DNA of 64,000 bases from a virus (Duplodnaviria > Caudoviricetes). Positions 2,914 through 54,461 of the stretch are shown here, in pieces; within the stretch, counting starts at the first letter, position 1, and each line of letters opens with the position of its first letter. The notes under the pieces were generated by a model that saw nothing but the letters and a program-made list of their open reading frames with translations, was not told the DNA's origin and made no database searches. The stretch covers positions 1 to 64,000 of IMG/VR virus record IMGVR_UViG_3300037424_000723, one strand, 5' to 3'. A program made the translations under genes and the position numbers.

Positions 2914-3022
2914 TGTCACCCAAACTAATAATCACTTATTTTATCCTGCTATCATTTTGATAGATGCCCCGGTATCATTGTTTGGGTGACAACAAACAGT
3001 GAGCGATACCGGGGCATTTTTA
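2914..3022 (+). promoter_or_regulatory. Structured leader/attenuator 1
   Basis: 12-bp IR 2914-2925/2980-2991 interleaved with 13-bp IR 2964-2976/3005-3017, followed by TTTTT. Confidence 0.7.
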
Positions 3023-3035
3023 TTGGAGTAAAACA

Positions 3036-3605
3036 ATGTCTATAAACCTGCCTCGTTGTCTTGATTGTGGAAAAGAACTAAAACATTATAGAAGTAAAAG
3101 ATGTAGATCATGTTCGAGGAAGATACCACTCGATATTAGATTTTGGAGTAAGGTTAATAAAGACGGGCCAATAGTCAGTTATGTTGGTACACCTTGTTGG
3201 ATATGGATAGGCCGATGCCTCAAGGGTAAGCATAAATATGGATACTTTGATCTATGTAAAATAGATAATCGCAACATTCAAATCTATGCCCATAGATTGA
3301 GTTGGGAAATTTCAAATAACCAAACTATTCCTGCGGGCTTATACGTTCTTCATCGTTGTGACAACCCATCTTGCGTTAATCCTAGTCATCTGTTTTTAGG
3401 GACATACAAAGATAACTCGGATGACATGACGCGTAAGGGTAGAGCCGTACATGTACGAGGCGAAAAGCATGGATGTGCAAAACTAACACAAATTCAAGTG
3501 GATGAAATTAGAAGATCATGCGATACTCCAGTACAACTTGCTGAAAAATATGGTGTAATCCCTGATACAATTCATAGAATTATCAAGTATAAGTCTTGGA
3601 AGTAA
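3036..3605 (+). CDS. HNH homing endonuclease (HNH_3 with C-terminal HTH), antisense to the tail operon
   Basis: RFWSKV...CWIW...AHRLSW...VLHRCDNPSCVNPSHLFLGTYKDN...GEKHGCAKLT. Confidence 0.95.
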   Translation: MSINLPRCLDCGKELKHYRSKRCRSCSRKIPLDIRFWSKVNKDGPIVSYVGTPCWIWIGRCLKGKHKYGYFDLCKIDNRNIQIYAHRLSWEISNNQTIPAGLYVLHRCDNPSCVNPSHLFLGTYKDNSDDMTRKGRAVHVRGEKHGCAKLTQIQVDEIRRSCDTPVQLAEKYGVIPDTIHRIIKYKSWK

Positions 3606-3606
3606 A

Positions 3607-5109
3607 TTAAGCTGCCTTACTTTGTAAACGATGAAGCACGCCACCGTCTCCACCAATTATCGCTAGATTTGCGTCTACGGGCGAGAAGTAGCCGAAATTA
3701 TAACCTGAGTTTGTTACCGCTGTAACCTGTAGCCAAGTTATGCCGCCGTCAACACTCTCCCAAACAGCGCCAACTCCCCCGGTTGTGTCATCAACTACCG
3801 CACGTAGTAATTGGCTATCGCCCCCACCGGCCTTAGTGCCACCGGCGCAATTGATAACCACCACACTCTTGTTTGCCCCAAAATCCTTAAGCAAAGTCCA
3901 GCCACCGGCGTTCTGCCCCGCGTTGTCACTCAGGTAGATAGCAGTACCATTCCCGGCATAGATGCGTCCATCGTTACCCACCACCACTGATGTAAACGCC
4001 CCGCCCCCACTTGGCCCAACTTTAACGTCAAATGTGTCACTCTGCCCAAGTTCCTGCAAGATGAGGTTAGAAGCCCCCACTGCCCAAACGCTATCATCAA
4101 CAGGGGAACGGGCAAAGGCGTTGATGGCAACCGAGCCGGTATAGATAGCAGAGCTAAAGCTCTCATTCTGATTTGTGCTTACGTAAATGTCACCATCAAC
4201 CGCGATATAAGCCCGGTTGTAAAAGGCCCAATTATAGGCCGTAACCGCCGCCGCCCCAATCGTAACCGCCGCAGACCAGCTAGAAGTACCCTCTGCGCCC
4301 AGTGTAAAGTCACCATATTTAAGCTGGGCCGTTGCTGCATCGCTGACCACCACTACCCTGAATTGGCTCTCGTTGATAAAGTACATCGCCACAAAGAGAA
4401 TGTCAGCCAATGCCGCAAAGGGATTTGTTGAGGTGATAGCCCAAGCGCCGCCGCCAGTAGTCGTATACCAGACATTAGCAAAATCACCGGGGGAGCCACT
4501 ATTGCTATTTACTGCTAAATAGCCAATCTCGTCAGGCGCATAGCCGGGGAAACAGTCATTACAACCGACTACTAAATCACTCAAAAAGGCAATGCCGTTA
4601 ATGGCCTGATCTTCGGCAATGGTGAGGGCCGATAAAAGGTGTTGATACAAAACCACCGTGTAAGTCCAGCTTACCTCGTAAGTGTCAAACTGGTTTACCC
4701 CGGTTGCCTCTCGACTTGGGCCGGCCCCGTCCGTTTCCTGAGTAATGGTCATCTTGCCATATTGTTTAACCCGTGTCCATGCCGGGCCATCTTTGCGCCC
4801 GCATTTGTACCAACGCTCCTGTAACGGAAAACAGCCCGTCCGGTCAAACATCTTTTTGAGGAAAGTAAATTGCCCTGTATCATCTTCCTCTACGGTTGAC
4901 GTATTCAACCCACCAGGGGGTGATAAAAAGGTGAGCTTGGGTACAAACCGACCAAATTCATCAGTCCCCCAAACCACCTCCCTACCCGCACCCGGCATTG
5001 TTTTACCAGCCATCCCGTTTTTATCAATTGACAACGGTTTAGCCGCCGTGTTAGGGCCATCGGGCTGCGCCCAGAGAATTACTTTATCTTGCGTTACAAA
5101 TTGAACCAT
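3607..5109 (-). CDS. Major tail (tube) protein with C-terminal Asp-box/BNR propeller-like region
   Basis: Position upstream of the chaperones; C-terminal repeats YTTTGGGAW, LSDNAGQNAGGW, ESVDGGITW. Confidence 0.65.
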   Translation of the reverse strand: MVQFVTQDKVILWAQPDGPNTAAKPLSIDKNGMAGKTMPGAGREVVWGTDEFGRFVPKLTFLSPPGGLNTSTVEEDDTGQFTFLKKMFDRTGCFPLQERWYKCGRKDGPAWTRVKQYGKMTITQETDGAGPSREATGVNQFDTYEVSWTYTVVLYQHLLSALTIAEDQAINGIAFLSDLVVGCNDCFPGYAPDEIGYLAVNSNSGSPGDFANVWYTTTGGGAWAITSTNPFAALADILFVAMYFINESQFRVVVVSDAATAQLKYGDFTLGAEGTSSWSAAVTIGAAAVTAYNWAFYNRAYIAVDGDIYVSTNQNESFSSAIYTGSVAINAFARSPVDDSVWAVGASNLILQELGQSDTFDVKVGPSGGGAFTSVVVGNDGRIYAGNGTAIYLSDNAGQNAGGWTLLKDFGANKSVVVINCAGGTKAGGGDSQLLRAVVDDTTGGVGAVWESVDGGITWLQVTAVTNSGYNFGYFSPVDANLAIIGGDGGVLHRLQSKAA

Positions 5110-5384
5110 TATTCAGTCTCCTGTTGATAAAGGGCAAATATCTTTTTGCCCACTTTTGCCAATATAATTTTATTAAAATCAGCTTGCCTGATTTGCACAT
5201 CGGCGATGGTCAGTAACCCTGCTTCGAGTAAAGCATTGTGAATATTTCGAGCTATCTCGTTCCAGTCCAGTTGAGTGAAGTCAGGGGGTGATTGCAACAG
5301 CCCAATAGCCGGGTCGGTATCACCATCCCGTAAAAGGGATTTATGGTTATAGCCATTTCGGTCGGTAAAGGTTACGAGTTTCAT
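5109..5384 (-). CDS. Hypothetical protein
   Basis: Coupled 91 aa ORF in the structural operon. Confidence 0.65.
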   Translation of the reverse strand: MKLVTFTDRNGYNHKSLLRDGDTDPAIGLLQSPPDFTQLDWNEIARNIHNALLEAGLLTIADVQIRQADFNKIILAKVGKKIFALYQQETE

Positions 5385-6661
5385 CTAAGCTCCCTATGGT
5401 TTATGGTTGCTCTGGTTGCCGATGTGCCACCTATTCCGGTAACTAACAGGGTAAGTGTCCCTAAACTACGTACCGCCCCGGCTACATTGAGTGTAATCGG
5501 ATAACGATTATTAAATTCACGGTTGACCGAAACAGATACAACCGCAGTTGCTGCAACATAACCTGCGGCAATGACAATAGCCGGGTTGCCTGAGATTGTG
5601 CCTGCCGTGTTATATTCAAAGGCACTGTAAGTAGTATTGACATCGTTAAATGTTACCGTGCCACTGATGGCCTGCCCTAAACACAACTCCCACAACACCG
5701 GGACGTTGCCGGTTACTAGAATTTCAATGCTCTCAACATCAAACTTTTCGCGGTTGGCAATACTATTAAAGGTAGTTTTGGGCCTGACACTCAGAATATG
5801 AGTTCTGGCCCCACTCCCCGCTGTTACCGTGCCTTCGGATGAAAATGTAAAACCGTTGTTAGTATTACTACCGCCCTCGCTTCTAACTGTTGCACAGATA
5901 AGATACATCGTGGTGCTAACTGTATCCGTGCAAGTCATTCCACAAATGATAGGTAATGAAGCTGTTTGCAGGTAGGGAAAATCTGCTTCATTAGCATGTA
6001 GAAATTCGTGACAATAAATCGTTACCCCGCCTATATTAAAGCCAACTCTGACCCGGCCCGTGTAAAGCGCTTGAAGGTCAATGACCAATATTTGGGTTTT
6101 GGTAATATCAAGAATAATACCACTTAGACCTGCTCCGTTTAGCTTGTCCAAATTCCAATCAACTTGCAAAGCTGTTTCATCACCCTCACTGGTATTACTC
6201 AGGATGCGCCAGGCGAGATTAGTCCCATCGCTGATAAAATGAATCCCGTTATTGCTCAGATCACCATAGCCCGCAAACTTGGTAACATTAGCGGTGTGTT
6301 CAATAAAGTTGGTAGTAATCAGTATTTGCTGACTATTGCCGGGCTGATAGTAAAAATGCTCATATGTTTGCATATACGCCTGGCCCCCCGTCGGCGTATT
6401 GCTAAAGGTCATCAAAGCGGCCCGTTCTACTGAGCTATGGGCAATAGTCGCTCCCGCTTCAGCTGTGATTTGCTGATACAGAAGTGGTTGCAAGTCATAG
6501 GTCAATTGAGCGTCAAAACGTGATTCCGGCTGGCTGACTCGTACTCGACCAAAGGCGTCAATTGAGGGACTATCTATCAAAAACGCCGTGACGGGTAGGG
6601 GATTGCTTTCCTGTATTGCTCTGGCCAGAGCATCAGCAATAACGACTTGGTTTACTGGCAT
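5381..6661 (-). CDS. Beta-rich putative virion protein (DAFGRxRVS family)
   Basis: 426 aa; SIDAFGRVRVSQP motif seen in phage structural hypotheticals. Confidence 0.6.
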   Translation of the reverse strand: MPVNQVVIADALARAIQESNPLPVTAFLIDSPSIDAFGRVRVSQPESRFDAQLTYDLQPLLYQQITAEAGATIAHSSVERAALMTFSNTPTGGQAYMQTYEHFYYQPGNSQQILITTNFIEHTANVTKFAGYGDLSNNGIHFISDGTNLAWRILSNTSEGDETALQVDWNLDKLNGAGLSGIILDITKTQILVIDLQALYTGRVRVGFNIGGVTIYCHEFLHANEADFPYLQTASLPIICGMTCTDTVSTTMYLICATVRSEGGSNTNNGFTFSSEGTVTAGSGARTHILSVRPKTTFNSIANREKFDVESIEILVTGNVPVLWELCLGQAISGTVTFNDVNTTYSAFEYNTAGTISGNPAIVIAAGYVAATAVVSVSVNREFNNRYPITLNVAGAVRSLGTLTLLVTGIGGTSATRATINHRELR

Positions 6662-7974
6662 TAAGCCACCGCCCCCATCATGGTGCTACTTGTCATGCGT
6701 CCGACTTGTTTCCAGGCGCGAATCTCGCCTATCTTTGTGCCAAAAGGATTCTCTAAATCCTGCTGACTAATCGCAAACGTACCTAATTCCCGACTACCCG
6801 TAAATGAGGCATCACGTTGTAAACTGTTTGGGCCGGGAAATGCTAGTGAATTGTTGCAGGCACAAAATGGTCGGTTTACCCGTGCCGTTGCCAACCAAGC
6901 AATAGCCTGAGCTAAGTTCCTGTCTAATGGGTCACAATTGCGCCCTGCCTTGAAGTCCTGAGAGGTGTTCCCGGCATAGTACCAGACCTTAACCATATCA
7001 GGGTCGCGGCAAAGAGATGTATAATCCGCCTGCCATTGGCCCGCGTCACTGTCGTATGTAGCCGGGGTTGGCACTACGAAAGTACCCTCTGCATTTTGAA
7101 CGTGGATACAACCGTCAACCGCGTAAAGCTCACAAGCTATACAACCGCTACCCCCACAACTTGAACAGCACCAGCCGACAGGCACAATGCCCAAATTAAA
7201 AGCGTTGACCCGTTCCCAAAGTAGCTGAGATGAAACCGCTGTAAAGTCGTTGTATTCCCGATATACGTCAACCACGCTTACATAACTAGCATTAGCTTCT
7301 ATGTCTATCGGTTCACTCTGGCCGGTAACGGTAAAGCGCTGTTGTAACTCTGGGTCAATAAGCTGCCAACTCCAAAAGGTAAAAATGACGTTACCACCGG
7401 TCAAGGTGATACTTCTGGGTGTGCGTACTTCCCAATCAGGATTAGCCAATTCACCGGCAAAGTAGCAATGTATCTCACATTTATCGGTTGACGCTGTAGG
7501 GGTTGTAATCGTAGCCGTTTCTTTATAGCCATCGCCGTCTGTATCTGTTCGCACTACTGCGGCATTAGCAGTAATCAGGGTTGTGGCCCGCTGTCCGCCT
7601 TGCAGGAAACCACCACGTGTTAATTGGACGCTCTTATTGGCCCCTCGGTTATCCGACATGCCAAACTCAAAAACATCACGCCGATAGTAACGTGGGTAGT
7701 TGTAAACGTCCTCCCACCACCAGGGGGCAACAGGTAAACCGATTACCTTAGCTATGTCGTTTTCGGCCTCGACAATGGCCTGAGCTATTTCCTCTCTGCT
7801 AACCTGCTGCTCATTCTGCCAGTAGAATTGATAGAAAATATCATCACACTGATTTACGAGGGGAAACACGGTTTGCCCTGCTGCTTGCCAATAAAAAGCG
7901 GGGCTAAAACTCAGGAGAGTACGATAGCGCTCCATACTCAGGGCCGTGCGAGGTAGGCCGGTTACAGCGTCCAT
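6661..7974 (-). CDS. Putative head-tail adaptor protein
   Basis: EAENDIAKVIGLPVAP...AQAIAWLA pattern and position; start taken at ATG 7974. Confidence 0.55.
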   Translation of the reverse strand: MDAVTGLPRTALSMERYRTLLSFSPAFYWQAAGQTVFPLVNQCDDIFYQFYWQNEQQVSREEIAQAIVEAENDIAKVIGLPVAPWWWEDVYNYPRYYRRDVFEFGMSDNRGANKSVQLTRGGFLQGGQRATTLITANAAVVRTDTDGDGYKETATITTPTASTDKCEIHCYFAGELANPDWEVRTPRSITLTGGNVIFTFWSWQLIDPELQQRFTVTGQSEPIDIEANASYVSVVDVYREYNDFTAVSSQLLWERVNAFNLGIVPVGWCCSSCGGSGCIACELYAVDGCIHVQNAEGTFVVPTPATYDSDAGQWQADYTSLCRDPDMVKVWYYAGNTSQDFKAGRNCDPLDRNLAQAIAWLATARVNRPFCACNNSLAFPGPNSLQRDASFTGSRELGTFAISQQDLENPFGTKIGEIRAWKQVGRMTSSTMMGAVA

Positions 7975-8345
7975 TCGGCCTCTATCTTGCAAGTAAATTC
8001 AATAAAAAATGTCGTTATTTCAGCATCAGGATATAATAGCATGGGTTGAGGCATCCATTTTCTATTGGGTTTACAGTCCTTAAATGTGGCAACATGGCTG
8101 GCATCTCGAAGATCATCCAAACGTCCAAAATCTTTATTGTAAAACCCAAGATTAAACACTTCACTTTCAAGGCGTTTGATTAGATTGTTCTGTACTGGTA
8201 AATCAAACTCTAAAATTATCCTGTCTGGATTACCCCAAATAACGCGCCATAATCCAACCTTGCCAATGGGCAATACCTCTCTATCGTTAATCCATAAAAC
8301 AGATTTCATTTTATTAAATACCATCGGCTTAATCATTGTGTCCAT
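7962..8345 (-). CDS. Hypothetical AT-rich inserted gene
   Basis: 127 aa ORF coupled at both ends. Confidence 0.6.
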   Translation of the reverse strand: MDTMIKPMVFNKMKSVLWINDREVLPIGKVGLWRVIWGNPDRIILEFDLPVQNNLIKRLESEVFNLGFYNKDFGRLDDLRDASHVATFKDCKPNRKWMPQPMLLYPDAEITTFFIEFTCKIEAEWTL

Positions 8346-8638
8346 TTATTCACCACGATTGCACCGGCTGACAGGGCAAACGGTAGACAAACCCAGTAGG
8401 TTAAGTTAGGTTGGAAGTAGTAGGCGATTGCCAAGATAGCTCCTATCCACACTGAAAAACAAAAAACGCAACTAAACAAATCCCCAAATACATTAAGGCC
8501 ATAAGGTACATCTCTGTCGTTATAGCGCACTCCTACCCAGTACCGGAAGCGATTAAACCAATCAAATGGCCCATCCTCATTAACCAGTAGTGAGGATATG
8601 CGCCAGGTTGCCAGGGTTAGGATGATTAGATTTTGCAT
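8333..8638 (-). CDS. DUF1360-like membrane protein
   Basis: LATWRISSLLVNEDGPF...FSCVFCFSVW. Confidence 0.8.
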   Translation of the reverse strand: MQNLIILTLATWRISSLLVNEDGPFDWFNRFRYWVGVRYNDRDVPYGLNVFGDLFSCVFCFSVWIGAILAIAYYFQPNLTYWVCLPFALSAGAIVVNKWTQ

Positions 8639-8644
8639 ATAAAT

Positions 8645-8679: not shown

Positions 8680-8716
8680 TGGGATAAATGATGTATTAAG
8701 TTATGTTATGTCGTTT

Positions 8717-10702
8717 TTACGCTGGTACTTTAGCCGGTCTACCGCGCCGCTTCTCTGGTACTAACAGCGTTGGTTCACTCAACTCCACTTTAGGCGTATC
8801 AGGGGTTTTAACCTCATTGGGTATCAACCGGAATAAGTCGGGCCGTGCCTGTTGATCGAGCCGATGTACTAAAAACCTGTCACCCTTACGCCGGGAATAC
8901 CCCTTATACTCAAGTACCTTATTGGGATTAGCCGGGTCAGTTTGCCGGGTAGGACTAGATAGCTTTTGCCCGTAATTGTCACGCATAGCGGAGCCGCTAA
9001 AATCAAACTCTATCATTACAAAATCAGCGTCGTTTGAACCGGCTGCCATTTGCCCGGTCACTGTCTGCTGTTGTCGTTTTGCGCCGCAATTACAACCCAC
9101 TGTTTCTAATCCTTCATACTTGAGTTTTATGTATTGTATCATGTCTTTATGTGCTTGTAAAGAGGCTTCATCTGTTACCGCACTTTTCTCTCTACGCTGC
9201 CCTTTGTGATAGGCATACATAATCAAATGTTCCGGCACTCGGTAGAAACAATGCCCAGCGCGGGCCATGCGCCAGAAGTAATCAACATCCTCCCACGTTG
9301 CCATAGTTTCATCAAATCCACCGATAGCATTATGCCAAACTTTGGGGATTAGACAGGATACTAAGCACCAGTGGTAATAAGGCATATTGGGGTTAGAGGG
9401 GTCTAGCTCTGGCTGGCGTTGGGCAAGATTAGGGTCAAAGTCGGCAGATTGGGCCTTGAAAACAGCAGTGCCTTTTTTGTGATTATAGCCAACTAGCTTA
9501 TCTCCAAACTCTTTTTCAGCCGCCTCGTAATCCCATATCGCCTTGCCCAGGTAATCGCTATAAATGATGCCCTCATTAGCGTTCCACGCCTGTATGAATT
9601 TATCCAATGCGTGAGCATCGGCCAAAACGTCATCGGCGTCAAGGAAGAACAGGAGAGGCGCACGGGCCACACTTGCCCCCCAGTTACGGGCAAATCCAGC
9701 GCCCTTACCCCCACCCGTAAAGCAATCCCGTACATAGGGATAGGCTACTTTGAGCCGGTCAATCCAGCCATGAGGATCTGCCTTGTCGAACACATCAGAG
9801 ACTACAATCGCTTCCCATTTGCGGAAGTGCTGCATTTCCAGGCTATCGAGCGCGTTTTGTGCTTCTAGCTCATGGCCCGGTCCAACGGGAATAATCACAC
9901 TGATAGCCGGGTCATCGTATTGAGAAACGGCGTGTGAATATTTTTTGGGGGTTGCCCAAGATGCAAAAGGGTGTTTTCCATCCTTAGCCCAGGGATACAT
10001 ACTGAGCCAATCAATTTCTTGATAATCTGGGTTGCCAGATGCGTTACCTTGCCCCATAGAATAGTTAAATAATGGCTCGGTTGTCACCTGTTTGGCATTA
10101 AAACCAATAGAGCAAATGGCAGACCAAAATGCAGCATCTTCACTACCCGCGCCGTATGGAGCATAACGAGACTTATAGCCCCCTACACGCTGCCAGGCGT
10201 CACGCCGAAATACGCAACAGGTAGGAACTTGGTTCTGCTTGAAGGTGTAGGTTAATTGGGCATCAGGGTTAAACTTATGAGGCCATTCGCTTGGCTGACT
10301 TGTGCCATCAGGGTTATGTGTCATCAAGCCGGTGTAGGCTATACCGAGGCTTCTGTCTTGCTCTAATGCGTTGACACATACCTCTAAAAATGTTGGCTCA
10401 ATAAAGTCATCTCCATCTAATGTACAGACAAAAGGCGCATCGGTTAGAGATATGCCATAATTGCGAGTAGGTGAAACATTTCCAAATTCCACCCGTTCAT
10501 ACCTAAAGCGCTTATCACTAGCTATTTCAGTTAAGATAATTTCACTCGAATTATCAGAACTTGAATCGTCAACAATGATACAAGATAAATTATTTATGGT
10601 TTGAGATTTGACACTATCAATAGCCCGTTTAATGGTACTTGCTTTTTGATGGCAGGGGATGACCACGCAAACCAGTGGAGGAGGTAGACTTAAATCACTC
10701 AT
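8717..10702 (-). CDS. Glycosyltransferase with two GT2 domains
   Basis: VVIPCHQ...IIVDDSSSD...TLDGDD and SVIIPVG...FFLDADD...EDVDYFWR. Confidence 0.92.
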   Translation of the reverse strand: MSDLSLPPPLVCVVIPCHQKASTIKRAIDSVKSQTINNLSCIIVDDSSSDNSSEIILTEIASDKRFRYERVEFGNVSPTRNYGISLTDAPFVCTLDGDDFIEPTFLEVCVNALEQDRSLGIAYTGLMTHNPDGTSQPSEWPHKFNPDAQLTYTFKQNQVPTCCVFRRDAWQRVGGYKSRYAPYGAGSEDAAFWSAICSIGFNAKQVTTEPLFNYSMGQGNASGNPDYQEIDWLSMYPWAKDGKHPFASWATPKKYSHAVSQYDDPAISVIIPVGPGHELEAQNALDSLEMQHFRKWEAIVVSDVFDKADPHGWIDRLKVAYPYVRDCFTGGGKGAGFARNWGASVARAPLLFFLDADDVLADAHALDKFIQAWNANEGIIYSDYLGKAIWDYEAAEKEFGDKLVGYNHKKGTAVFKAQSADFDPNLAQRQPELDPSNPNMPYYHWCLVSCLIPKVWHNAIGGFDETMATWEDVDYFWRMARAGHCFYRVPEHLIMYAYHKGQRREKSAVTDEASLQAHKDMIQYIKLKYEGLETVGCNCGAKRQQQTVTGQMAAGSNDADFVMIEFDFSGSAMRDNYGQKLSSPTRQTDPANPNKVLEYKGYSRRKGDRFLVHRLDQQARPDLFRLIPNEVKTPDTPKVELSEPTLLVPEKRRGRPAKVPA

Positions 10703-10713
10703 TATGGTATAAT
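10685..10713 (+). promoter_or_regulatory. Sigma70-type promoter of the antisense nuclease
   Basis: TAGACT-17-TATAAT; the -35 and spacer lie within the first codons of the divergent GT2 gene. Confidence 0.7.
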
Positions 10714-10718: not shown

Positions 10719-10828
10719 TTGTCACAAGTTGGTAAATATTGCCGGTATAATCTATACTTAACTTACTAAGCGCTTTGTGCTGCCAACTTGTGACAAATGA
10801 GGCAATCGCACAGGGCGCTTTGTATTTT
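10719..10828 (+). promoter_or_regulatory. Structured leader/attenuator 2
   Basis: 14-bp IR 10719-10732/10783-10796; hairpin 10768-10780/10808-10820 followed by TGTATTTT. Confidence 0.7.
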
Positions 10829-10837: not shown

Positions 10838-11275
10838 ATGAAACGATGTAGTAAGTGCAAAGAACTGAAAAACATAAGTGAATTTGGCAAAAACAAGAGT
10901 GAAAAGGATGGCCTACAGGATGCTTGTAAAAATTGCCGAAAAGCATATTATCAAATACCAAAAATAAAAACAAAGCACAATGAGACATCCAAGAAATATA
11001 AGCAATCTCAATCTGGAAAAATAACGGTTAAAAAATCATCTTCAAAAAGACGTAAGAATAACCCTGCTTGGTACAAAGCTACCAACGCAGTAAATAACGC
11101 CATTAGAGACGGAAAATTACCCAAAATATCCACATTAAAATGTAGCAATTGTCCTAATCAGGCCCATGACTATCATCATTATTTGGGGTATGGCCTTATA
11201 CATTGGCTTGATGTAATTCCTGTATGCCGGAAATGTCACGTTGATATAACTCTACGGGAATCTTCATCGGCCTAA
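10838..11275 (+). CDS. Zn-ribbon plus HNH-like endonuclease, antisense to the operon
   Basis: KRCSKCKELK...DGLQDACKNC N-terminus; CSNC...HH..GY...LDVIPVCRKCH; RBS GAGGT before ATG 10838. Confidence 0.8.
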   Translation: MKRCSKCKELKNISEFGKNKSEKDGLQDACKNCRKAYYQIPKIKTKHNETSKKYKQSQSGKITVKKSSSKRRKNNPAWYKATNAVNNAIRDGKLPKISTLKCSNCPNQAHDYHHYLGYGLIHWLDVIPVCRKCHVDITLRESSSA

Positions 11276-15407: not shown

Positions 15408-15953
15408 ATGGAAGAAATTTGGAGAGATATTATTGAATATGAAGGACTATACCAAGTATCGAATCTAGGCAATGTAAAAAGTATTGTTGGCATTAGAATA
15501 GATAGTAGAAGTAGAATATACAAGTTACCTCTAAAGGTACTTAAATCACAGTACGATAGATATGGTTATCTTCATGTTAGTTTATATAGACAGAAAAAGG
15601 TTAAGCATAAATTGATACATCGTTTGGTACTTGAGGCATTTATTGGTAATTGTCCTAAAGGAAACTATGCTAATCACAAAGACGGCAATCGAGCGAATAA
15701 TAAATTAAATAACCTTGAATGGTGTACTCCAAGTGAAAACAACTTACATGCCTTTAGAGTATTAAATAGAAAACCAGTTTATGTATGTGGTATAAAAAAC
15801 GCCAATGCCAAATTAACTGATGATAAAATACGATATGCAAAAGAACTAAGACAAAAAGGATTTACCTTCCAGAAAATAGCAGATGAACTAGGCATTGCAA
15901 AGTCACACGCTAAACGAATAATTGATGGTAAGTCTTGGGGGCATATTTTATAA
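15408..15953 (+). CDS. NUMOD4-HNH homing endonuclease, antisense to the operon
   Basis: EIWRDIIEYEGLYQVSNLG...IHRLVLEAFIG...NHKDGNRANNKLNNLEWCTPSEN. Confidence 0.96.
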   Translation: MEEIWRDIIEYEGLYQVSNLGNVKSIVGIRIDSRSRIYKLPLKVLKSQYDRYGYLHVSLYRQKKVKHKLIHRLVLEAFIGNCPKGNYANHKDGNRANNKLNNLEWCTPSENNLHAFRVLNRKPVYVCGIKNANAKLTDDKIRYAKELRQKGFTFQKIADELGIAKSHAKRIIDGKSWGHIL

Positions 15954-40911: not shown

Positions 40912-40939
40912 TTGCATGTCTGACATATCATGCTATAAT
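40912..40939 (+). promoter_or_regulatory. Promoter of the antisense HNH (leaderless)
   Basis: TTGCAT-16-TATAAT with extended TG, 6 nt before ATG 40946. Confidence 0.7.
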
Positions 40940-40945
40940 ACTCTT

Positions 40946-41671
40946 ATGTCAAATCAAAAAATACGTGATTATCATAATAATCGAAGACGACTTATAAAGT
41001 TGGGACAATGGATACCAAGTAGACCAGCAGGAAGGCTTGGAAAAAACATTGTTTGCGATAACTGTAAAAAAGAGTTTTATCGAAGTCCAGCAAATAGAGG
41101 GCCAGGTAATCAATATTGCTCTGAAAAATGCATGTCTGAGGCATTCATAGGTAAGCGTCTCGGAAAAGACCACCCCAGATGGAAGGGAGTAGAAATTAGA
41201 CCATGTGGAGGATGTGGAAAAGAAGTATCTAGGCCACCGTGGAGAGCAAAAGGCCGAACAAATTTCTTTTGTGACCAAAAGTGTTTCGCTATATGGAAAG
41301 CGGAAAATTACACAGGGAAAGATAACCCATGCTGGCGCGGTGGTCATCCTCCCTATTATGGCCCAAACTGGCAACGGCAATCTAGGGAAGCTAGAAAAAG
41401 GGACAATCATCAATGCCAAAGTTGTAATATTCACGAGGATAATCTTAGACGTGCTTTGGATGTACATCATATTCTACCAATAAGATATTTTGAGGAAGAA
41501 AATTACAAAGAAGCAAATAAACTTAGTAATTTAATATCCCTGTGTGAGGTATGCCATACTACAGCAGAGCATATATGTAAATATGGTACTATCTCAACAT
41601 GGAGTGAACTTAAACCACTTCTTTTATCTCGTATTGACCCGACGCAATCTCGCAATCTAAAAGGTTCTTAA
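40946..41671 (+). CDS. HNH endonuclease with Zn-finger repeats, antisense to the operon
   Basis: CDNCKKEF..., YCSEKC, FCDQKC; RKRDNHQCQSC...DVHHILP...NLISLCEVCH. Confidence 0.93.
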   Translation: MSNQKIRDYHNNRRRLIKLGQWIPSRPAGRLGKNIVCDNCKKEFYRSPANRGPGNQYCSEKCMSEAFIGKRLGKDHPRWKGVEIRPCGGCGKEVSRPPWRAKGRTNFFCDQKCFAIWKAENYTGKDNPCWRGGHPPYYGPNWQRQSREARKRDNHQCQSCNIHEDNLRRALDVHHILPIRYFEEENYKEANKLSNLISLCEVCHTTAEHICKYGTISTWSELKPLLLSRIDPTQSRNLKGS

Positions 41672-48728: not shown

Positions 48729-48767
48729 TGGTTAAGCTCCTGTTGCTAGTGGATTTGAATATACCTT

Positions 48768-48796
48768 ATAGTATCATACTTTTGTTTATTTGTCAA
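48768..48796 (-). promoter_or_regulatory. Leftward promoter
   Basis: TTGACA-17-TACTAT. Confidence 0.8.
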
Positions 48797-48823
48797 GCGT
48801 TAAATTATCAAAATTGTAACCAC

Positions 48824-48852
48824 TTGACAGATAAATATTATAGTGGTAAAAT
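48824..48852 (+). promoter_or_regulatory. Rightward promoter
   Basis: TTGACA-17-TAAAAT. Confidence 0.85.
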
Positions 48853-48874
48853 AATTGCGGAGGTAATATATTTT

Positions 48875-49099
48875 ATGAGCAAAAATCCATTAAAGGAATT
48901 GATTGACAGCCATTTAGGGTTAGCGCCCTACCGGGTAGCAGATGAGGCTGGTTTGACGCGGGGGGCCGTGTATCGTCTTTACCGGGCCGATGATTTACCC
49001 AACGCCGAAACCGATACACTAAAGGCTATAGCCTGGGTTTTAGGGCATCGGCTGGTTATTAGCTTTGAACCCGTCGAGAGCGATGACAATGGCAAGTGA
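48875..49099 (+). CDS. Cro/C1-type HTH regulator
   Basis: YRVADEAGLTRGAVYRL...TLKAIAWVLG; RBS GGAGG. Confidence 0.85.
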   Translation: MSKNPLKELIDSHLGLAPYRVADEAGLTRGAVYRLYRADDLPNAETDTLKAIAWVLGHRLVISFEPVESDDNGK

Positions 49100-49463
49100 T
49101 CTGACCGAAGTCCAAAAGGAATTAAAGCGGCAACAACGTCAAGCCCTGGTCAATCTGTTTGACACCCAATGGCGACGGCTAGGCGGCAAACCGCTAACGG
49201 CTGAATGGAAATTCCACCCTACCCGCAATTGGCGATTTGATAGGGCTAATATCCATCTAAAGATAGCAGTCGAGGTAGATGGGGGAACCTGGATTCAAGG
49301 GCGTCATACTTCTGGGGTTGGCTTTGCCAACGATTGCGAGAAGTTAAACAATGCCGCCCTGCTTGGTTGGCGCGTGTTTAGGTTTACCAGTGATATGCTG
49401 ACAAACGATCCGGCCAAACATTTGACGCCGGTTATCAGGCTTATACAGGAGCAAAGCAAATGA
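49089..49463 (+). CDS. PD-(D/E)XK (DUF559/Vsr-like) endonuclease
   Basis: EWKFHPTRNWRFD...IAVEVDGG...GRH...DCEKLN. Confidence 0.88.
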   Translation: MASDLTEVQKELKRQQRQALVNLFDTQWRRLGGKPLTAEWKFHPTRNWRFDRANIHLKIAVEVDGGTWIQGRHTSGVGFANDCEKLNNAALLGWRVFRFTSDMLTNDPAKHLTPVIRLIQEQSK

Positions 49464-49765
49464 CAACTCACTGGCAGGATGACCCGTATGAAGATAACTT
49501 TGATGACTATGACGAATGGGAGGATGAGGACGAAGATGAGGACATTTGGCCGCACGATTATGAGGATTACCCACCCGACTATGACGGATTTGAATATGAC
49601 GACGACCCCGTACCTCTAACTCTACTTGAGCGATTGCAAAACAAAATAGGCTGGATCTGCTGGCGTCTTGAGCATTGGTGGGATTATGGCCTGAATATGC
49701 GCCGATGCGGTGACTGTGGCAAACGTTATCGCTTTGGTAATCACGATCAATGTATACCGTTTTAA
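49460..49765 (+). CDS. Very acidic protein with C-terminal Zn ribbon
   Basis: D/E-rich N-terminus; CGDC...H..C. Confidence 0.65.
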   Translation: MTTHWQDDPYEDNFDDYDEWEDEDEDEDIWPHDYEDYPPDYDGFEYDDDPVPLTLLERLQNKIGWICWRLEHWWDYGLNMRRCGDCGKRYRFGNHDQCIPF

Positions 49766-49777
49766 GGAGTTGAATAA

Positions 49778-50491
49778 ATGACAACCCACTTCCAATACAC
49801 CACACGCGGCCTGATCGTAACCGGCAATCCAACTATAGAGGACTGGTTAGCTGAGTTTGGCGCACTTAAAACTAATGCCAAAGGGATGTATAGAAAAATA
49901 GGGGATATGCTAACCTGGGGTGAGTTAACCTATGGAGATTTGAGTCATCAGGTAAATGACAGTGATGATTGCGATGATCCTATTTTTAATCCTGGTACTC
50001 TCTACAATGCCAAGTGGGTATCTAGTAGATGGTGGCCGGTTGACCGGCGTATCTATGATTTACCCTGGTCATATTACCAAGAGACATCGGCCCTCAAGCC
50101 AGAACAGCAAGATTTAGTTATGGCAATGGCTGAGGCTAAAAAGTGGAATCGTGACCAGATACGGCTTGAGGTAGCTAAATATCAGCAGTTTAACGGCAAA
50201 AGGGATTACAAACCCCTGCGACCTGATGACATCATTTTTGACCAGCAGCAGAGATTACAAGCGTTACAAGAACAGATTGACCAGAAATCTCACGCGGCGT
50301 TAGATTCACAATCCCCCGCCGAATCCCCCATAACCTACGGCGGTACACTCCCCGATGGCAGCACCTTAACCGAATGGGAGCAAGATCAAATTAGGGCTAT
50401 TGGCGACGTGGCGAAAAATAACGGCTGGCTATCGGTAACGGTTTTTGAGGATGGCCGGTTTATGGTAGAACCTAAAAAGGACGGTGACTGA
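49778..50491 (+). CDS. LmbU-like DNA-binding phage protein
   Basis: IGDMLTWGE..YG...TLYNAKWVS...RR...LPWSYYQE. Confidence 0.55.
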   Translation: MTTHFQYTTRGLIVTGNPTIEDWLAEFGALKTNAKGMYRKIGDMLTWGELTYGDLSHQVNDSDDCDDPIFNPGTLYNAKWVSSRWWPVDRRIYDLPWSYYQETSALKPEQQDLVMAMAEAKKWNRDQIRLEVAKYQQFNGKRDYKPLRPDDIIFDQQQRLQALQEQIDQKSHAALDSQSPAESPITYGGTLPDGSTLTEWEQDQIRAIGDVAKNNGWLSVTVFEDGRFMVEPKKDGD

Positions 50492-50700
50492 TGGCACAAG
50501 TAAAACACGAGGTTACTTTTGATGGCATCCTATTTGATAGCGAGGCTGATTTAATAAACTTTCTCAAACATTCGTATTTTGCCAATAAATCCAGCGAAAA
50601 GACATTACGGGCTGATTTAGACAAATTATCTAAGAAAGTAAAAAGGTTATCGTTTGCAATAACAACGGGTGCATATAATCCTAAAAAGGACGGTGAGTGA
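50491..50700 (+). CDS. Hypothetical protein
   Basis: Coupled ORF. Confidence 0.6.
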   Translation: MAQVKHEVTFDGILFDSEADLINFLKHSYFANKSSEKTLRADLDKLSKKVKRLSFAITTGAYNPKKDGE

Positions 50701-50891
50701 TGGATGAAAAAATAGTAGTATTTATCGTAAATGATGAGCAATTTGGCCAGATTATCGCCCCGACCGTTGAGGGGGTGCTGGCCTATCTCAAAAGCTATCT
50801 GGCCGAATTGCCGGATGGATGTGAGATTGTTTTCGAGATAAAACGTCGGGATATGACGCTGGACGAAATAGATAAAGCGGCGGTAGTGTGA
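50697..50891 (+). CDS. Hypothetical protein
   Basis: Coupled ORF. Confidence 0.6.
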   Translation: MMDEKIVVFIVNDEQFGQIIAPTVEGVLAYLKSYLAELPDGCEIVFEIKRRDMTLDEIDKAAVV

Positions 50892-50892
50892 C

Positions 50893-51108
50893 ATGGCACA
50901 AGAAACTAAATGGTGTATAGCTAGTTGTAAAAAGAACGAAATAGCCCTGGCCCTAATTATTGATGGCATCCCGCAAGATTTATTGTGGTTGGCCGTACAA
51001 GAGGATGCTCAGGAATGGTTTGATAAATACTGGCAATGGCAAACTACACGGTGCCCGTTTTTGCCAAAGGAGATACAATGCCACCCTGTAACCGTGCCTA
51101 CTTCCTGA
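50893..51108 (+). CDS. Hypothetical protein
   Basis: Adjacent ORF. Confidence 0.55.
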   Translation: MAQETKWCIASCKKNEIALALIIDGIPQDLLWLAVQEDAQEWFDKYWQWQTTRCPFLPKEIQCHPVTVPTS

Positions 51109-51220
51109 CACCCTCAGCCGCCTATCGTTGCCTTGAAATCCTGGACGCGCTGGGTTGGCTATCGGGTGAATGGAGACCGGTCAAGTGCGAGTGTGGGAAG
51201 TGGCATTGTGAGTGTGTAAG

Positions 51221-51475
51221 ATGACCGAACTAACCCCCGCCAAAATCCATAGTCAACTCGCCTGGTTATCCCGTTACCGACGCGGCTTGTGTCGTGATTA
51301 TACCGCTGCCCACCTTGCCAGCGACGAAACCGAGATGCACAGCATCAGGGCCGAGTATCGGTTGATCGGTAACTTGATGGCTAAGTTGCGAGGCGAGTTG
51401 AGGGAATTTGAGGCATTGCAGAGTGAGCAGGTGGCGGCAGTTGTGTTTGTAGAGGAGTTACTAAATTTAAGTTGA
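51221..51475 (+). CDS. Hypothetical coiled-coil protein
   Basis: ATG at 51221. Confidence 0.55.
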   Translation: MTELTPAKIHSQLAWLSRYRRGLCRDYTAAHLASDETEMHSIRAEYRLIGNLMAKLRGELREFEALQSEQVAAVVFVEELLNLS

Positions 51476-51543
51476 CAACGCCTCAGTTATCGGTTATAGT
51501 TGATAGATTGAGGATTGACAAAATTTAAGAAGTAGAGTATCAT
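51472..51543 (+). promoter_or_regulatory. Tandem promoters
   Basis: TTGACA-17-TATAGT and TTGACA-17-TATCAT. Confidence 0.85.
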
Positions 51544-51549
51544 TATGAT

Positions 51550-51722
51550 TAACAACCGCGTGGGGGTGACGCCCCACCTTAAGCGGAAAAGAATAAGTGG
51601 TAGAGATAAAAAGAAAACCCTTGAGTTTTTTGTCAAGGCTATTAAGTAGGACACCGGGCCGTCAACCCGGTCTCTACCCAAAAGCCGAAAGATAGCCTTG
51701 ACAAAGGATTTGAGGGTTTTTT
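51550..51722 (+). promoter_or_regulatory. Structured leader/attenuator 3
   Basis: 14-bp TTTGTCAAGGCTAT/ATAGCCTTGACAAA stem extended by AAAACCCT/AGGGTTTT with T-run; inner ACCGGG/CCCGGT stem. Confidence 0.7.
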
Positions 51723-51728
51723 AATTCT

Positions 51729-52469
51729 ATGTCAACTTCAAAGCTACAAAAACAGGTAAAGCAGCAATTGTTTAATTATTTTTACCATTACCACATTGAA
51801 GAAAATTACCGTCCCGATTGGCTTATGTATCAAAACGGCAACAACCTAGAGATTGATTTTTACATAGAAAGATTAAGCGTAGCAATTGAAGTGCAAGGTG
51901 AGCAACACTTTATTTACAGTCCGTTTTTTCATAATAGCTATGATGATTTTATAGCCCAGACGAATCGGGATAAATTCAAGAAAAATATCTGCCAAGAAAA
52001 GGGTATAGTTTTTATAGAAATATCATCCCCAAGTCAGATAGATAGATGTCTTGAAAAACTACTATTGATTGAAAATAACCCAAAGGAACTAAGTCACGCA
52101 TTGTTTGATAAAAAACTAAAATCAATGGTAAATGCCTTATCAAAAAGTGAACAATGCTATTTTAATTTCAATGGGATATGCAAGACGTATGAAGAAATAA
52201 AGCCCTTACTTAAAGACTACAAAAGCATGCATGGAGACACACCTGAAAGAAGAGAACTAAGAATCCTTATCGGGCGCAAATTATCCAAAATAAACTCAAA
52301 ACTAATTCATCTTAAAAAATCTAAAAACGATAACGAGGTATCCGGTCTAGCTAAAGAATTATGGGACAAATTAAACAGTACCGGAATGTTTTTTGTATTC
52401 AAAAAATTCAAACCAAAACGCCCCGACAAATCTGAGAGTAACTTTTTCTCTCAGTTGATTTACAAGTAA
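51729..52469 (+). CDS. Vsr/PD-(D/E)XK-like free-standing endonuclease
   Basis: LEIDFYIERLSVAIEVQGEQH...RDKFKKNICQEKGI. Confidence 0.85.
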   Translation: MSTSKLQKQVKQQLFNYFYHYHIEENYRPDWLMYQNGNNLEIDFYIERLSVAIEVQGEQHFIYSPFFHNSYDDFIAQTNRDKFKKNICQEKGIVFIEISSPSQIDRCLEKLLLIENNPKELSHALFDKKLKSMVNALSKSEQCYFNFNGICKTYEEIKPLLKDYKSMHGDTPERRELRILIGRKLSKINSKLIHLKKSKNDNEVSGLAKELWDKLNSTGMFFVFKKFKPKRPDKSESNFFSQLIYK

Positions 52470-52480
52470 GGGCGTTTTTT
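52416..52480 (+). terminator. Long terminator hairpin overlapping the nuclease 3' end
   Basis: AAACGCCC/GGGCGTTT, AAATC/GATTT and TGAGAG/CTCTCA stems followed by a T-run. Confidence 0.7.
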
Positions 52481-52502
52481 ATTTCCTGCAAAGGGTAGAT
52501 AA

Positions 52503-52739
52503 ATGACAAAAAGCATCTGGCTCGAAAATGGTATTCATATGGATTTATCGGATGATGCCACCGCTGAAGATGTAGCCACTATCAAGGCATATGCCGATAA
52601 ATTGATAGTAGAGACACGCAAGCGCAAAGCGGCATTTAATCACGCCTGGGAAGCTGCACAGGCAACGGGTGACAAAGAAGCGGCCTGGAAGTGGTTCGAT
52701 ACCGGCTGTGATTGGATAAGCCAGAGGCAGGCACAATGA
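52503..52739 (+). CDS. Hypothetical protein
   Basis: RBS AAGGG. Confidence 0.65.
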   Translation: MTKSIWLENGIHMDLSDDATAEDVATIKAYADKLIVETRKRKAAFNHAWEAAQATGDKEAAWKWFDTGCDWISQRQAQ

Positions 52740-52882
52740 GCCTCATTAAAAAGCTATTCCGCACTCCCGCCCCTAAGCCCCGCCGCACTTGCAGCCCATT
52801 CGCCGGTATGTCAACGGGTGCGAGGTTGGATGCCTGCCTGCTGCTGGGTTGGTATGATCCGCGAATATTCGAGGGATGGTGA

Positions 52883-53080
52883 GTGATGACACTTAACGAA
52901 AAGATCAAATCCATTATGGATGATGTTGAAAAAATCAAGGGCGCTGAGTTTTGTGTACCTGATAACAATTGTGGCGTGTTCGTTTTGCCGAATGGGGAAC
53001 ACATAGAAATATGTGGCGGCGATTTACTGATTGCCCTGTGCCAACTTTTGGGCATCAAAATAGAATGGGATTTGGGGTGA
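52883..53080 (+). CDS. Hypothetical protein
   Basis: RBS GGTGAG. Confidence 0.55.
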   Translation: MMTLNEKIKSIMDDVEKIKGAEFCVPDNNCGVFVLPNGEHIEICGGDLLIALCQLLGIKIEWDLG

Positions 53081-53138
53081 TGGGCATCTGGCAACTCAAA
53101 GTTGAGGATTGACTATGGCAACGAAAGGATAACCAACA

Positions 53139-53342
53139 ATGAACCAACCGCAATACCCACCAATCAACCTATCCTCTGAGCTTACCCAAGCTCTGGCAAT
53201 GGAGGAATACCACCGAGATCAACTCATCTGGTGGAAGTCACGCCGGGAATTTTTAGAAACACAACTACCCATCAATAACCCCTTTTACGACTTTATACAG
53301 GAGATTCCCGACAATGACAACACAGAGACTATCAAGGGCTGA
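53139..53342 (+). CDS. Hypothetical protein
   Basis: RBS AAGGA. Confidence 0.6.
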   Translation: MNQPQYPPINLSSELTQALAMEEYHRDQLIWWKSRREFLETQLPINNPFYDFIQEIPDNDNTETIKG

Positions 53343-54237
53343 TATTGCATCTCTACCGAATTACAAATCCAAAGGCAAAACGGAGAAAGAGTTTAGCTCT
53401 GCCTGCCCTCAATGCGGTGGGGTTGACCGTTTTTTGTACTGGCCGGATAAAGGTAATTTTTATTGTCGGCGCTGTGAGTTGTCAGGATTCGTTTTAGAGA
53501 CTGACCAACGCTTAATAACTGATGAGCAACGTGAAGCCTGGAAAAGAGCTAACAACGAGCGCAGACTAAAGGATATAGAGGCGCGGTTATCGGCCATAGA
53601 ACGGTTGCAAAAGCAGGTTGACCGCGTTCATTGGTATCATAGCCAGGTAAGTCAGGCCCTTGACTACTGGTATTCACAGGGGTTACAGGACAGCACAATT
53701 GAGGCGTTTTGTCTGGGATATTGTCCAGCCTGCCCTATTGAGCCAGAATCGCCCTCGTATGTCATCCCCTATTTTCAGTCCAAGCAGTTAATCAATTTGC
53801 GCCACAGATTGCAATTCCCGAATGGGCACGGCAAGTATCGCCCTGAGTTTGCCGGCCTGGGTAATCAGATTTTTAACCTTGATACGCTCAGTATTGATTT
53901 CGACTTTGGACTACTTGATGAAAATGAAGTGGTGATCGTGGAGGGTGAAGTCAAAACAATGGTACTCGAACAGGCCGGATTTAAGACCGTTGGCATACCT
54001 GGGGCGAATAGTTGGCAGGAAGATTGGGGCAAGGCCCTAAAGGGCATTAGTCGGGCTTATGTCTGCCTTGACCCTGGTACCAATGGGCAAGCCGATAAAA
54101 TAGCAATGTCACTCAAGGGATACAACATAGAAGGGTTAGTATGTCGAGTGCCCGTTAAGCCGGATGACATGCTCACACTCTACGGTGGTAGTCCAATGGA
54201 CTTATTAGGATTCATTAAACAGGGACGGCGGGTTTGA
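53314..54237 (+). CDS. DNA primase (Zn ribbon plus TOPRIM)
   Basis: ACPQCGGVDRF...FYCRRC; VIVEGEVKT...GIPGA...CLDP. Confidence 0.92.
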   Translation: MTTQRLSRADIASLPNYKSKGKTEKEFSSACPQCGGVDRFLYWPDKGNFYCRRCELSGFVLETDQRLITDEQREAWKRANNERRLKDIEARLSAIERLQKQVDRVHWYHSQVSQALDYWYSQGLQDSTIEAFCLGYCPACPIEPESPSYVIPYFQSKQLINLRHRLQFPNGHGKYRPEFAGLGNQIFNLDTLSIDFDFGLLDENEVVIVEGEVKTMVLEQAGFKTVGIPGANSWQEDWGKALKGISRAYVCLDPGTNGQADKIAMSLKGYNIEGLVCRVPVKPDDMLTLYGGSPMDLLGFIKQGRRV

Positions 54238-54240
54238 GGG

Positions 54241-54269
54241 TTGCAATTTTAGGGGATAGGTGATATAAT
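54241..54269 (+). promoter_or_regulatory. Promoter
   Basis: TTGCAA-17-TATAAT with extended TG. Confidence 0.85.
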
Positions 54270-54342
54270 GGATTTAATTAAATCGTATCCAATTGAGATA
54301 CAAAACCAATGCCATTTAACCCTTTGGCCGGGGTTGGCTAGG

Positions 54343-54461
54343 TAACGATAGCGCAAACAGCACTCCTGTTTTTATATGGGTGTTGGATTTGTAAGCAGTT
54401 TTTGCGCTATCGTTATGCTTACAAGGCCAGCCAACATCCGTATAAGAATGGGAGTTTTTTT
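54343..54461 (+). promoter_or_regulatory. Structured leader/attenuator 4
   Basis: 15-bp IR 54343-54357/54401-54415, with the second half inside the loop of hairpin 54362-54397/54416-54455, followed by T7. Confidence 0.75.

Follow-up and report, generated by a model that had tools for sequence, protein, structure and literature searches.

How does a phage restrain the selfish nucleases that it carries? Free-standing homing endonucleases are ubiquitous in phage genomes, and how their harm to the carrier is restrained is understood for few T4 genes. The question is raised by IMG/VR record IMGVR_UViG_3300037424_000723, a phage contig of 77,330 bp with direct terminal repeats, whose first 64 kb (the stretch analysed here, hereafter the window; GC ~45%) hold four nuclease-like genes, each behind a structured leader (L1 to L4, in window order); a fifth leader lies beyond the window. 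We argue that L1, L2 and the fifth leader belong to a conserved and portable family of RNAs built around an intrinsic terminator, which would act as bistable transcription attenuators, a reading that we rate slightly above even (about 0.55). The leader probably sets how often transcription reaches the nuclease genes. Searches of the window found no tRNA gene and no Rfam family at gathering score, the primase led to no sister phage among viral or metagenome contigs, and cultured phages searched by megablast and blastn yielded nothing useful.

All four leaders of the window share one order of parts, as the initial annotation had described and as reading and folding of all four regions bore out: a sigma-70-like promoter, a segment A, a long hairpin B..B' that holds A' in its loop, a U-tract and a start codon, with A:A' helices of 12, 14, 8 and 15 bp in L1 to L4 (Table 1). 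Matches to Pfam and PHROG profiles likewise agree with its assignment of the four downstream genes to nucleases. The promoters stand out from their surroundings, those of L1 and L2 being among the best consensus matches within 1-20 kb (that of L1 is the best) and the two of L3 together with that of L4 being the top three within 49-60 kb. The minimum free energy (MFE) folds of the four leaders have z-scores of -4.1 to -7.2 against shuffles. When the whole genome was scanned for hairpins with a loop of at least 15 nt followed by a T-run, and each was checked for an upstream complement to its loop, complements of 12-16 nt were found at L1, L2, L4 and the fifth leader and of 4-9 nt at the other candidates. 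The leaders had been taken for unrelated sequences that converged on one topology. This stands for L3 and L4 only, which are unrelated in sequence, and fails for L1, L2 and the fifth leader, which are homologous and covarying: TATAAT, 5-6 nt and TGTCAC are common to the three (the TGTCAC core noted earlier in the A segments of L1 and L2 is indeed present), GTGACA closes A', and the first 11 nt are identical between L1 and the fifth leader. The latter consists of TGCTATAAT, then UGUCAC with a 16-bp helix A, then a terminator with a Shine-Dalgarno sequence (SD) in its 3' arm.

Relatives of these leaders were collected with the pattern TATAAT-N5/6-TGTCAC-N55-75-GTGACA, to which a T-run was added for metagenome contigs. 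In viral contigs 35 loci fit the pattern and 10 of them have the full architecture, by which we mean an A:A' helix of 8-17 bp (G.U allowed, sequences differing), the second hairpin arm, U-tract, SD and start codon; in metagenome contigs there were 71 loci, and A:A' extends to 8-16 Watson-Crick bp in 35. Bacterial and archaeal genomes serve as a null control. Their 121 pattern hits show extension counts that decay geometrically, as by chance (81, 27, 6, 2...), and a single one has the full architecture. This locus (L130) is the only such hit among 185,579 prokaryote genomes; it could belong to a prophage or to a phage contig that was binned wrongly, and is a possible hint at a host. A narrower pattern, the exact hexamer plus CCAAA of L1 and the fifth leader, had no match in viral contigs. 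After removal of near-duplicates and of five weak cases, the final set held 40 non-redundant members, three of them from this genome: L1, L2 and the fifth leader belong, L3 and L4 do not. A covariance model built from helix B alone (R1) recovered three further copies that the patterns had missed, with the helices kept. One starts with CGUCAC and has GUGACU as its partner; another has a TACAAT -10 and lies ahead of another GIY-YIG gene; in a third the hexamers read UGUCUA/UAGACA, a compensatory change. In these pattern-free copies, then, it is the helix that is kept. Nine viral contigs from IMG/VR (L002, L008, L009, L011, L018, L019, L022, L027 and L035) carry another conserved element of ~100 nt that starts with TATAAT-N5-TGTCAC and includes GGTGACA. 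Its A:A' has only 6 bp and a U-tract is missing; possibly this is a distinct, uncharacterised leader RNA.

A member of the family is an RNA of ~105 nt. It begins at +1 with UGUCAC, followed by a variable extension of helix A, often a U-run (at least four U in 23/40 members), C (~7 nt), an A-tract, B (12-17 nt), A', a linker, C', B' and the U-tract; the start codon usually comes 16-22 nt further on, with an SD before it. A' adjoins B directly (median junction 0 nt) and ends in GUGACA. The promoter has TGN ahead of the -10 in 29/40 members, TGN being absent from the search pattern. The paired segments run in the order A C B A' C' B', meaning that all three helices cross one another. R1 also matches the reverse complements of several leaders (up to 41.6 bits), for example L025 4083-4189 on the minus strand; the element is near-symmetric, with mutually complementary hexamers and a terminator that has both an A-tract and a U-tract.

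Covariation among leader relatives, the check that the initial annotation proposed, is found in all three helices. On a structure-blind MAFFT alignment of 19 core members (A2), 94% of the cells are paired in A, 76% in C and 96% in B, and the covariation score is 0.539 versus 0.169 after shuffling (0/500) and 0.10-0.16 with the partners slid. Helix C by itself scores 0.531 versus 0.196 (0/500). The B:B' helix varies on both sides at 14/17 pairs, and the A-tract pairs with the U-tract; C:C' reads UUUCUAG/CUAGAAA, UUUCUGG/CCAGAAA or UAUCGCC/GGCGAUA in different members and AUUGCC/GGCAAU in L2. A column-wise count of C:C' on a model-fitted alignment (A4) was blurred by one-nucleotide register shifts, and we relied on A2 and on an alignment-free test that compares the duplex energies of a member's own segments with those of other members. 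In this test, complementarity is specific for the A extension (p=4e-22), for B (p=9e-27), for C (p=3e-8) and for an inner hairpin in which the 5' part of A' pairs with the stretch from GUGACA to B', which includes C' (p=9.5e-8); no other pairing was specific. We dropped the reading of the variable segments as guides or seeds, since all of them pair inside the molecule. A leader peptide was looked for by eye in L1 only, where there is one open reading frame (ORF) of 12 codons without an SD.

How these helices could work together is suggested by folding the RNA as it lengthens. In RNAs that end just before B', helix A is the MFE structure in 39/40 members; in the full leader the terminator fold takes over in 28/40 and helix A persists in 12/40, with a mean gap of 4.0 kcal/mol in favour of the terminator fold. 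The leaders of the window behave likewise: in L1, A:A' is the MFE structure until B' is made, after which the terminator fold is preferred (-39.5 versus -27.3 kcal/mol), and in L2 the fold forced to keep A lies at -34.2 against an MFE of -39.9 kcal/mol. GUGACA is unpaired in the inner-hairpin loop of the terminator fold in 22/40 members. Helix A measures 12-22 bp while the stretch from A' to B' has only 6-17 nt, whose length does not scale with the helix (Spearman 0.05), and since so short a stretch faces so long a helix, full A and full B would, on geometric grounds, not coexist. Helix A competes with the inner hairpin for A' and, except in L4, has no nucleotides in common with B:B'. The proposal of the initial annotation that the leaders are RNA switches around an intrinsic terminator gains support here, A:A' being the fold that these models expect first during transcription.

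We favour a bistable attenuator as the account of the family with the best support, and its action may be pictured as follows. The extended -10 promoter would start a leader of ~105 nt that ends in the intrinsic terminator just before the ribosome-binding site. During synthesis, the 5' end (UGUCAC and 6-16 variable nucleotides) would pair with A', forming a helix A that encloses the terminator 5' arm B at a zero-nucleotide junction. Once B' is made, the RNA could refold to B:B' and the inner hairpin, with GUGACA in its loop, and transcription would then stop at the U-tract; C:C' may tie the remaining loop nucleotides to the segment just upstream of B. The balance of the two folds would set the share of transcripts that reach the gene, so that nucleases, replication initiators and a methylase would be made at a low level or only under some conditions. 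We infer that helix A, with or without C:C', lowers termination and that a signal exists; it is plausible that A:A' prevents termination. For most members, with the SD outside the structure, control would be transcriptional. More tentatively, and with clearly less confidence than in attenuation itself, the family could be a new class of cis-regulatory phage RNA in which the three crossing helices make a bistable, loop-sequestering attenuator and the hexamers are the handle for a factor that sets read-through. UGUCAC and GUGACA would be paired in one fold and exposed in the other, and the factor might be a phage or host one, or else the terminated leader RNAs of other copies, giving a shared feedback; on this view, one controller would have taken on selfish nuclease genes of five unrelated folds as well as replication initiators and a methylase.

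Several points weigh against the attenuator. Because A and B share no nucleotides, their exclusion would have to be steric or kinetic, and a partial B:B' stem adjoining the U-tract could form beside helix A as a pseudoknot and terminate all the same. The folding energies are nearest-neighbour values that do not include pseudoknots. The linkers of C:C' are 0-6 nt on both sides, which makes it hard for this helix to coexist with full A or with B:B'; one possibility is that the upper part of A and C:C' form a classical pseudoknot that would leave both hexamers single-stranded. The model names no effector. Since the hexamers stood in the search patterns, the conservation of UGUCAC/GUGACA, like that of TATAAT, is largely by construction, and the three model-found copies alone test it. 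R1, a model of the core subfamily, matches this genome's own leaders weakly, with 19.6 bits for L1, 23.4 bits for L2 and no score for the fifth leader. In L3, finally, the 8-bp A:A' is at chance level, because other candidates of the genome scan reach 4-9 nt, and it is unlikely that so short a helix would prevent a terminator of 26-32 bp.

The same parts could serve other ends. The promoter-terminator unit might be mainly the gene for an abundant and stable small RNA of ~105 nt, base-paired at both ends and acting in trans; its target might be the other copies, contacted through the shared UGUCAC/GUGACA hexamers, or something in the host or the phage, and the downstream gene would be expressed only by leak-through. 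A strong extended -10 promoter directly ahead of a canonical terminator with A-tract and U-tract is what such a gene would look like, as is a 5' end paired from about +1; the hexamers are conserved as sequence and often exposed in the terminator fold, a phage genome has two or three copies, and several members have no SD-preceded, ATG- or GVG-started ORF of at least 40 codons after the U-tract. Yet in most members an SD and a start codon stand at a fixed 16-22 nt past the U-tract, which favours a leader role, no target was identified, and the internally paired variable segments offer no obvious seed. The copy that alters its hexamer with compensation also speaks for a helix rather than a sequence-specific contact in trans, and we see a small RNA as unlikely, if with a real chance of being right. 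Unlikely too is that nothing switches at all, one static pseudoknotted fold acting as a fixed, context-independent damper and insulator through partial termination and a protected 5' end, so that a selfish cassette would be expressed at the same low level wherever it inserted. The 0-nt junction of B and A' does resemble a coaxially stacked H-type pseudoknot and the module is portable among unrelated contexts; damping would be useful at L1 and L2, whose promoters face antisense into structural operons and whose genes leave no space for a terminator behind them, and T4-type phages are known to lower homing-endonuclease expression by terminators and hairpins (PMC2988022). A static pseudoknot, however, predicts that the 6-17 nt spanning the 12-22 bp helix scale with its length, which they do not; it has no need of the specifically complementary inner hairpin that competes with helix A, and the near-equal energies of the two folds across members look selected.

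The initial annotation had gone further, proposing that A:A' antiterminates by default and that an RNA from 58.0-58.2 kb, or the opposing late mRNA, pairs with A and so silences the nucleases in the manner of pT181 and pIP501. The two copies of GGTGACA on which it built are present on the minus strand (58035-58041 and 58131-58137), GGUGACA is complementary to the initial 7 nt of both L1 and the fifth leader, the second copy (58035-58041) has a terminator-like hairpin immediately downstream, and L1 and L2 are antisense to late operons. But this match spans no more than 7 nt and fails for L2, L3 and L4. GGTGACA occurs 20 times on that strand, ~0.57 such close pairs are expected in the genome by chance and another pair lies near 76.2 kb, and TGTCAC/GTGACA occurs 51 times in the window against 21.4 expected in dinucleotide-preserving shuffles (largest 33), a 2.4-fold excess found mostly inside genes; the claim thus has no statistical support. 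Moreover, the first copy appears, on reading the sequence, to sit inside a local hairpin, no minus-strand promoter-like site that could drive a countertranscript lies within the leaders (2914-3024, 10719-10828, 51550-51722 and 54277-54461), L3, L4 and the fifth leader point the same way as the genes around them, and the family is spread over many phages, where a 58-kb-like locus was not searched for. We consider this version of the switch improbable. The inverted repeats might instead work as DNA, as operator half-sites, as cruciforms for a phage protein or as target or insertion sites of the nucleases, in keeping with the position of TGTCAC at the transcription start, the genome-wide over-representation of the hexamer and module borders that coincide with recombination break points. 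The spacing of the hexamers, however, ranges from 55 to 75 nt or more, the complementarity runs 6-16 nt past the hexamer in differing sequences and includes G.U pairs that work only in RNA, and three interleaved helices with a U-tract and an A-tract suit a transcript better than an operator; of all the alternatives this one seems to us the least credible.

L3 and L4 would follow the same logic with unrelated sequences: in each, segment A competes with the top of a very long terminator hairpin. R1 matches neither, and the hexamer and C:C' are missing from both. No relatives of the nucleases behind them were found in viral contigs, which leaves both leaders as predictions from a single sequence. 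L4 is a credible classical attenuator with a direct overlap of antiterminator and terminator, because its A' overlaps the terminator 3' arm and its two folds are 4 kcal/mol apart: the outer A' shares 5 nt with B' (CCAAC, common to both), and the fold forced to keep A lies at -60.7 against an MFE of -64.7 kcal/mol. The hairpin of L3 (26-32 bp) has a z-score of -7.2 versus shuffles. It also resembles a bidirectional terminator (51612-51722), preceded by an A-run and followed by a U-run, and was partly recovered by a scan of the minus strand. The SD of L3 (GAGGG), L4 (GGGAG) and the fifth leader (GGAGG) is placed within the hairpin's 3' arm, so the hairpin would block translation too; L1 (GGAG), L2 and most family members have it after the U-tract.

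What stands behind the leader bears on its role. Among ~33 downstream genes with identifiable products or clear motifs, ~19 encode nucleases, of five nuclease folds, and the data support a strong link between this leader design and free-standing nuclease genes. HNH_3 proteins with or without AP2 follow seven leaders (L1, L005, L025, L165, L183, L192, L224) and other HNH proteins two (L163, L218); endonuclease VII or His-Me types follow L2, L186, L024, L173 and L202, GIY-YIG proteins the fifth leader and L231, a LAGLIDADG protein L166 and a TnpB N-terminus L177. The family is not restricted to nucleases: replication initiators or HTH_36 proteins follow L010, L168, L190 and L193, a DNA methylase follows L015, and the rest of the downstream genes lack a recognised function. 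The L177 member (5445-5907) lies ahead of an ORF of 114 codons whose sole domain is HTH_OrfB_IS605 of TnpB (E 1e-21), perhaps a truncated RNA-guided nuclease. The module also moves as a unit. The fifth leader and that of L163 are 79% identical over 136 nt, which take in nothing beyond the -10 and the leader. Helices A, B and C differ between the two by compensatory changes, and neither the flanking sequences nor the genes downstream are related. In at least three phages the module is present two or three times. The closest cultured-phage homologue of one member's HNH-AP2 gene, in Bacillus phage 268TH002, has no leader and starts 11 nt after a helicase gene.

Parts of this design have precedents. 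In the pT181 repC and the pIP501/pAMbeta1 rep leaders, attenuation is promoter-proximal, an upstream preemptor segment pairs first and an intrinsic terminator precedes the gene. Our leaders likewise have an upstream segment that would pair first, a terminator just before the gene and an outcome that would be decided during transcription, but A pairs with the terminator loop rather than with an arm, C pairs with the rest of the loop, and no countertranscript promoter lies within L1 to L4; L4 is the sole leader in which, as in classical attenuators, the antiterminator overlaps the terminator 3' arm. The P4 CI RNA and the C4 RNA of P1 and P7 are leader-derived, excised by RNase P, and act in trans at flanking sites to cause premature termination. 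As in those RNAs, several segments of a family member find their complements elsewhere in the one transcript, arranged in matching 5'-to-3' order; unlike there, all partners lie within ~105 nt and no processing signal is evident, and models of the C4 or P4 CI type gave no match at gathering score in the window and none below threshold in L1, the fifth leader and six core members. The leader of the E. coli alpha operon, which is bound by S4, has a three-chord 'ABCABC' pseudoknot topology. Its mutually crossing helices are a topological likeness, though those of the family are long (12-22, ~7 and 12-17 bp) with linkers of 0-6 nt, more likely to alternate, and have no known protein partner. Lambda PR'-tR' (6S RNA) with Q, and the put RNA of HK022, pair a constitutive promoter with a terminator that has to be overcome. 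A strong promoter with a terminator within 100-200 nt ahead of downstream genes is common to both designs, but no Q-like or put-like element was identified here, and the terminator belongs to the conserved fold.

The closest described biology is the control of homing-endonuclease genes in T4-type phages, with hairpins that sequester the ribosome-binding site for I-TevI, I-TevII, I-TevIII, segB and Aeh1 mobE, and terminators in mobE and segF (PMC2988022). Structured RNA and terminators serve low or late expression of nucleases there, and for L3, L4 and the fifth leader the position of the SD within the hairpin's 3' arm is a further likeness; the T4-type hairpins are simple, gene-specific and promoter-dependent, whereas the family is a conserved and exchangeable promoter plus leader with three crossing helices. 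Neither the window nor 144 kb of member loci gave an Rfam 15 match at gathering score. Two candidate identities were rejected. The int-alpA RNA (RF02996, gathering score 35.8 bits) has no match in the 77-kb genome at E up to 10, none in 181-nt windows around L1 and the fifth leader (E up to 10), none in six core members (E up to 1) and none at gathering score over the 144 kb of member loci; the family is not part of int-alpA, because the int-alpA model finds nothing here. A search of the E. coli K-12 intA-alpA region for a reference int-alpA copy found only tmRNA. L1 matches the CopA-like RNA RF00042 with 27.8 bits (E 0.0024 in a 181-nt search), below the gathering score of 60 bits, but the match rests on a shared CCCCGGUA GC stem and the other leaders have none. 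Full-text searches turned up nothing on a UGUCAC leader motif, although the existing catalogue of candidate structured RNAs from IMG/VR may list the motif unnamed (PMC10690425).

Table 1. Leaders of the phage contig and the genes behind them (window coordinates, except for the fifth leader).
Feature	Position	Strand	Remarks
L1 promoter, TTGACT-17-TATAAT	2880-2908	+	11/12 consensus; TGTCAC begins 5 nt past the -10
L1 leader RNA, UGUCAC family member	2914-3024	+	
L1 segments	A 2914-2925, C 2931-2937, B 2963-2977, A' 2980-2991, C' 2997-3003, B' 3004-3016, U-tract 3017-3024	+	A:A' 2914-2925 with 2980-2991, 12 bp perfect
HNH_3 / His-Me finger endonuclease gene (L1)	3036-3605	+	Pfam HNH_3 3.4e-10, zf-His_Me_endon 1.9e-6
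L2 promoter, extended -10	10685-10713	+	10/12 plus TG
L2 leader RNA, UGUCAC family member	10719-10828	+	
L2 segments	A 10720-10734, C 10737-10744, B 10768-10780, A' 10781-10795, C' 10800-10806, B' 10807-10818, U-tract from 10819	+	A:A' 10719-10732 with 10783-10796, 14 bp perfect; with G.U allowed, 10720-10734 with 10781-10795, 15 bp
Endonuclease VII-like / His-Me finger nuclease gene (L2)	10838-11275	+	phrog_2340 endonuclease 7.4e-25; weak DUF968
L3 tandem promoters	51472-51500 and 51515-51543	+	11/12 each
L3 leader, topology shared, no sequence membership	51550-51722	+	
L3 segments	A 51599-51606, B 51618-51643, A' 51671-51678, B' 51691-51716, U-tract 51717-51722	+	SD within 3' arm; A:A' 51599-51606 with 51671-51678, 8 bp
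Nuclease-like gene (L3)	51729-52469	+	phrog_559 HNH endonuclease 4.8e-13; phrog_9084 homing endonuclease; weak DUF2726
L4 promoter, extended -10	54241-54269	+	10/12 plus TG
L4 leader, topology shared, no sequence membership	54277-54461	+	
L4 segments	A 54333-54357, B 54363-54386, outer A' 54427-54435, B' 54431-54454, U-tract 54455-54461	+	SD within 3' arm; A:A' 54343-54357 with 54401-54415, 15 bp perfect; imperfect extension 54333-54342 with 54427-54435
L4 inner hairpin arms	54389-54397 / 54416-54424	+	surrounding A' 54401-54415
HNH endonuclease gene, GTG start (L4)	54465-55178	+	Pfam HNH 1.8e-4; several HNH PHROGs
Fifth leader	genome 67519-67640 (L001 3519-3640)		before GIY-YIG gene
Fifth leader element with gene	genome 67505-68438 (L001 3505-4438)		

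The HNH_3 gene of L1 is antisense to minus-strand genes on both sides. At its 3' end, a weak promoter-like site on the minus strand (9/12; 3579-3606) is aimed antisense into the gene and the leader. One GIY-YIG relative (P0002) is 58% identical. Two further HNH genes of the window, at 15408-15953 (NUMOD4 and HNH_3) and 40916-41671 (HNH), lie on the plus strand inside minus-strand operons, each with an apparent promoter-like -10 close upstream and neither with a structured leader or a terminator, so the leader is not obligatory for the nuclease cassettes of this phage. A minus-strand HNH gene (58364-58867) has upstream a long-range stem of ~9-14 bp (58883-58896 with 58961-58974) without a U-tract or UGUCAC, and thus a different leader design (region 58364-58974).

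Nucleases of five folds, from many uncultured phages, thus have in common a conserved and exchangeable RNA module that is not in Rfam. Three crossing, covarying helices around an intrinsic terminator would be an unusual design for an attenuator, and the leader gives annotators a marker of independently transcribed cassettes. If the attenuator reading is true, the module would be a general controller of the expression of selfish genes.

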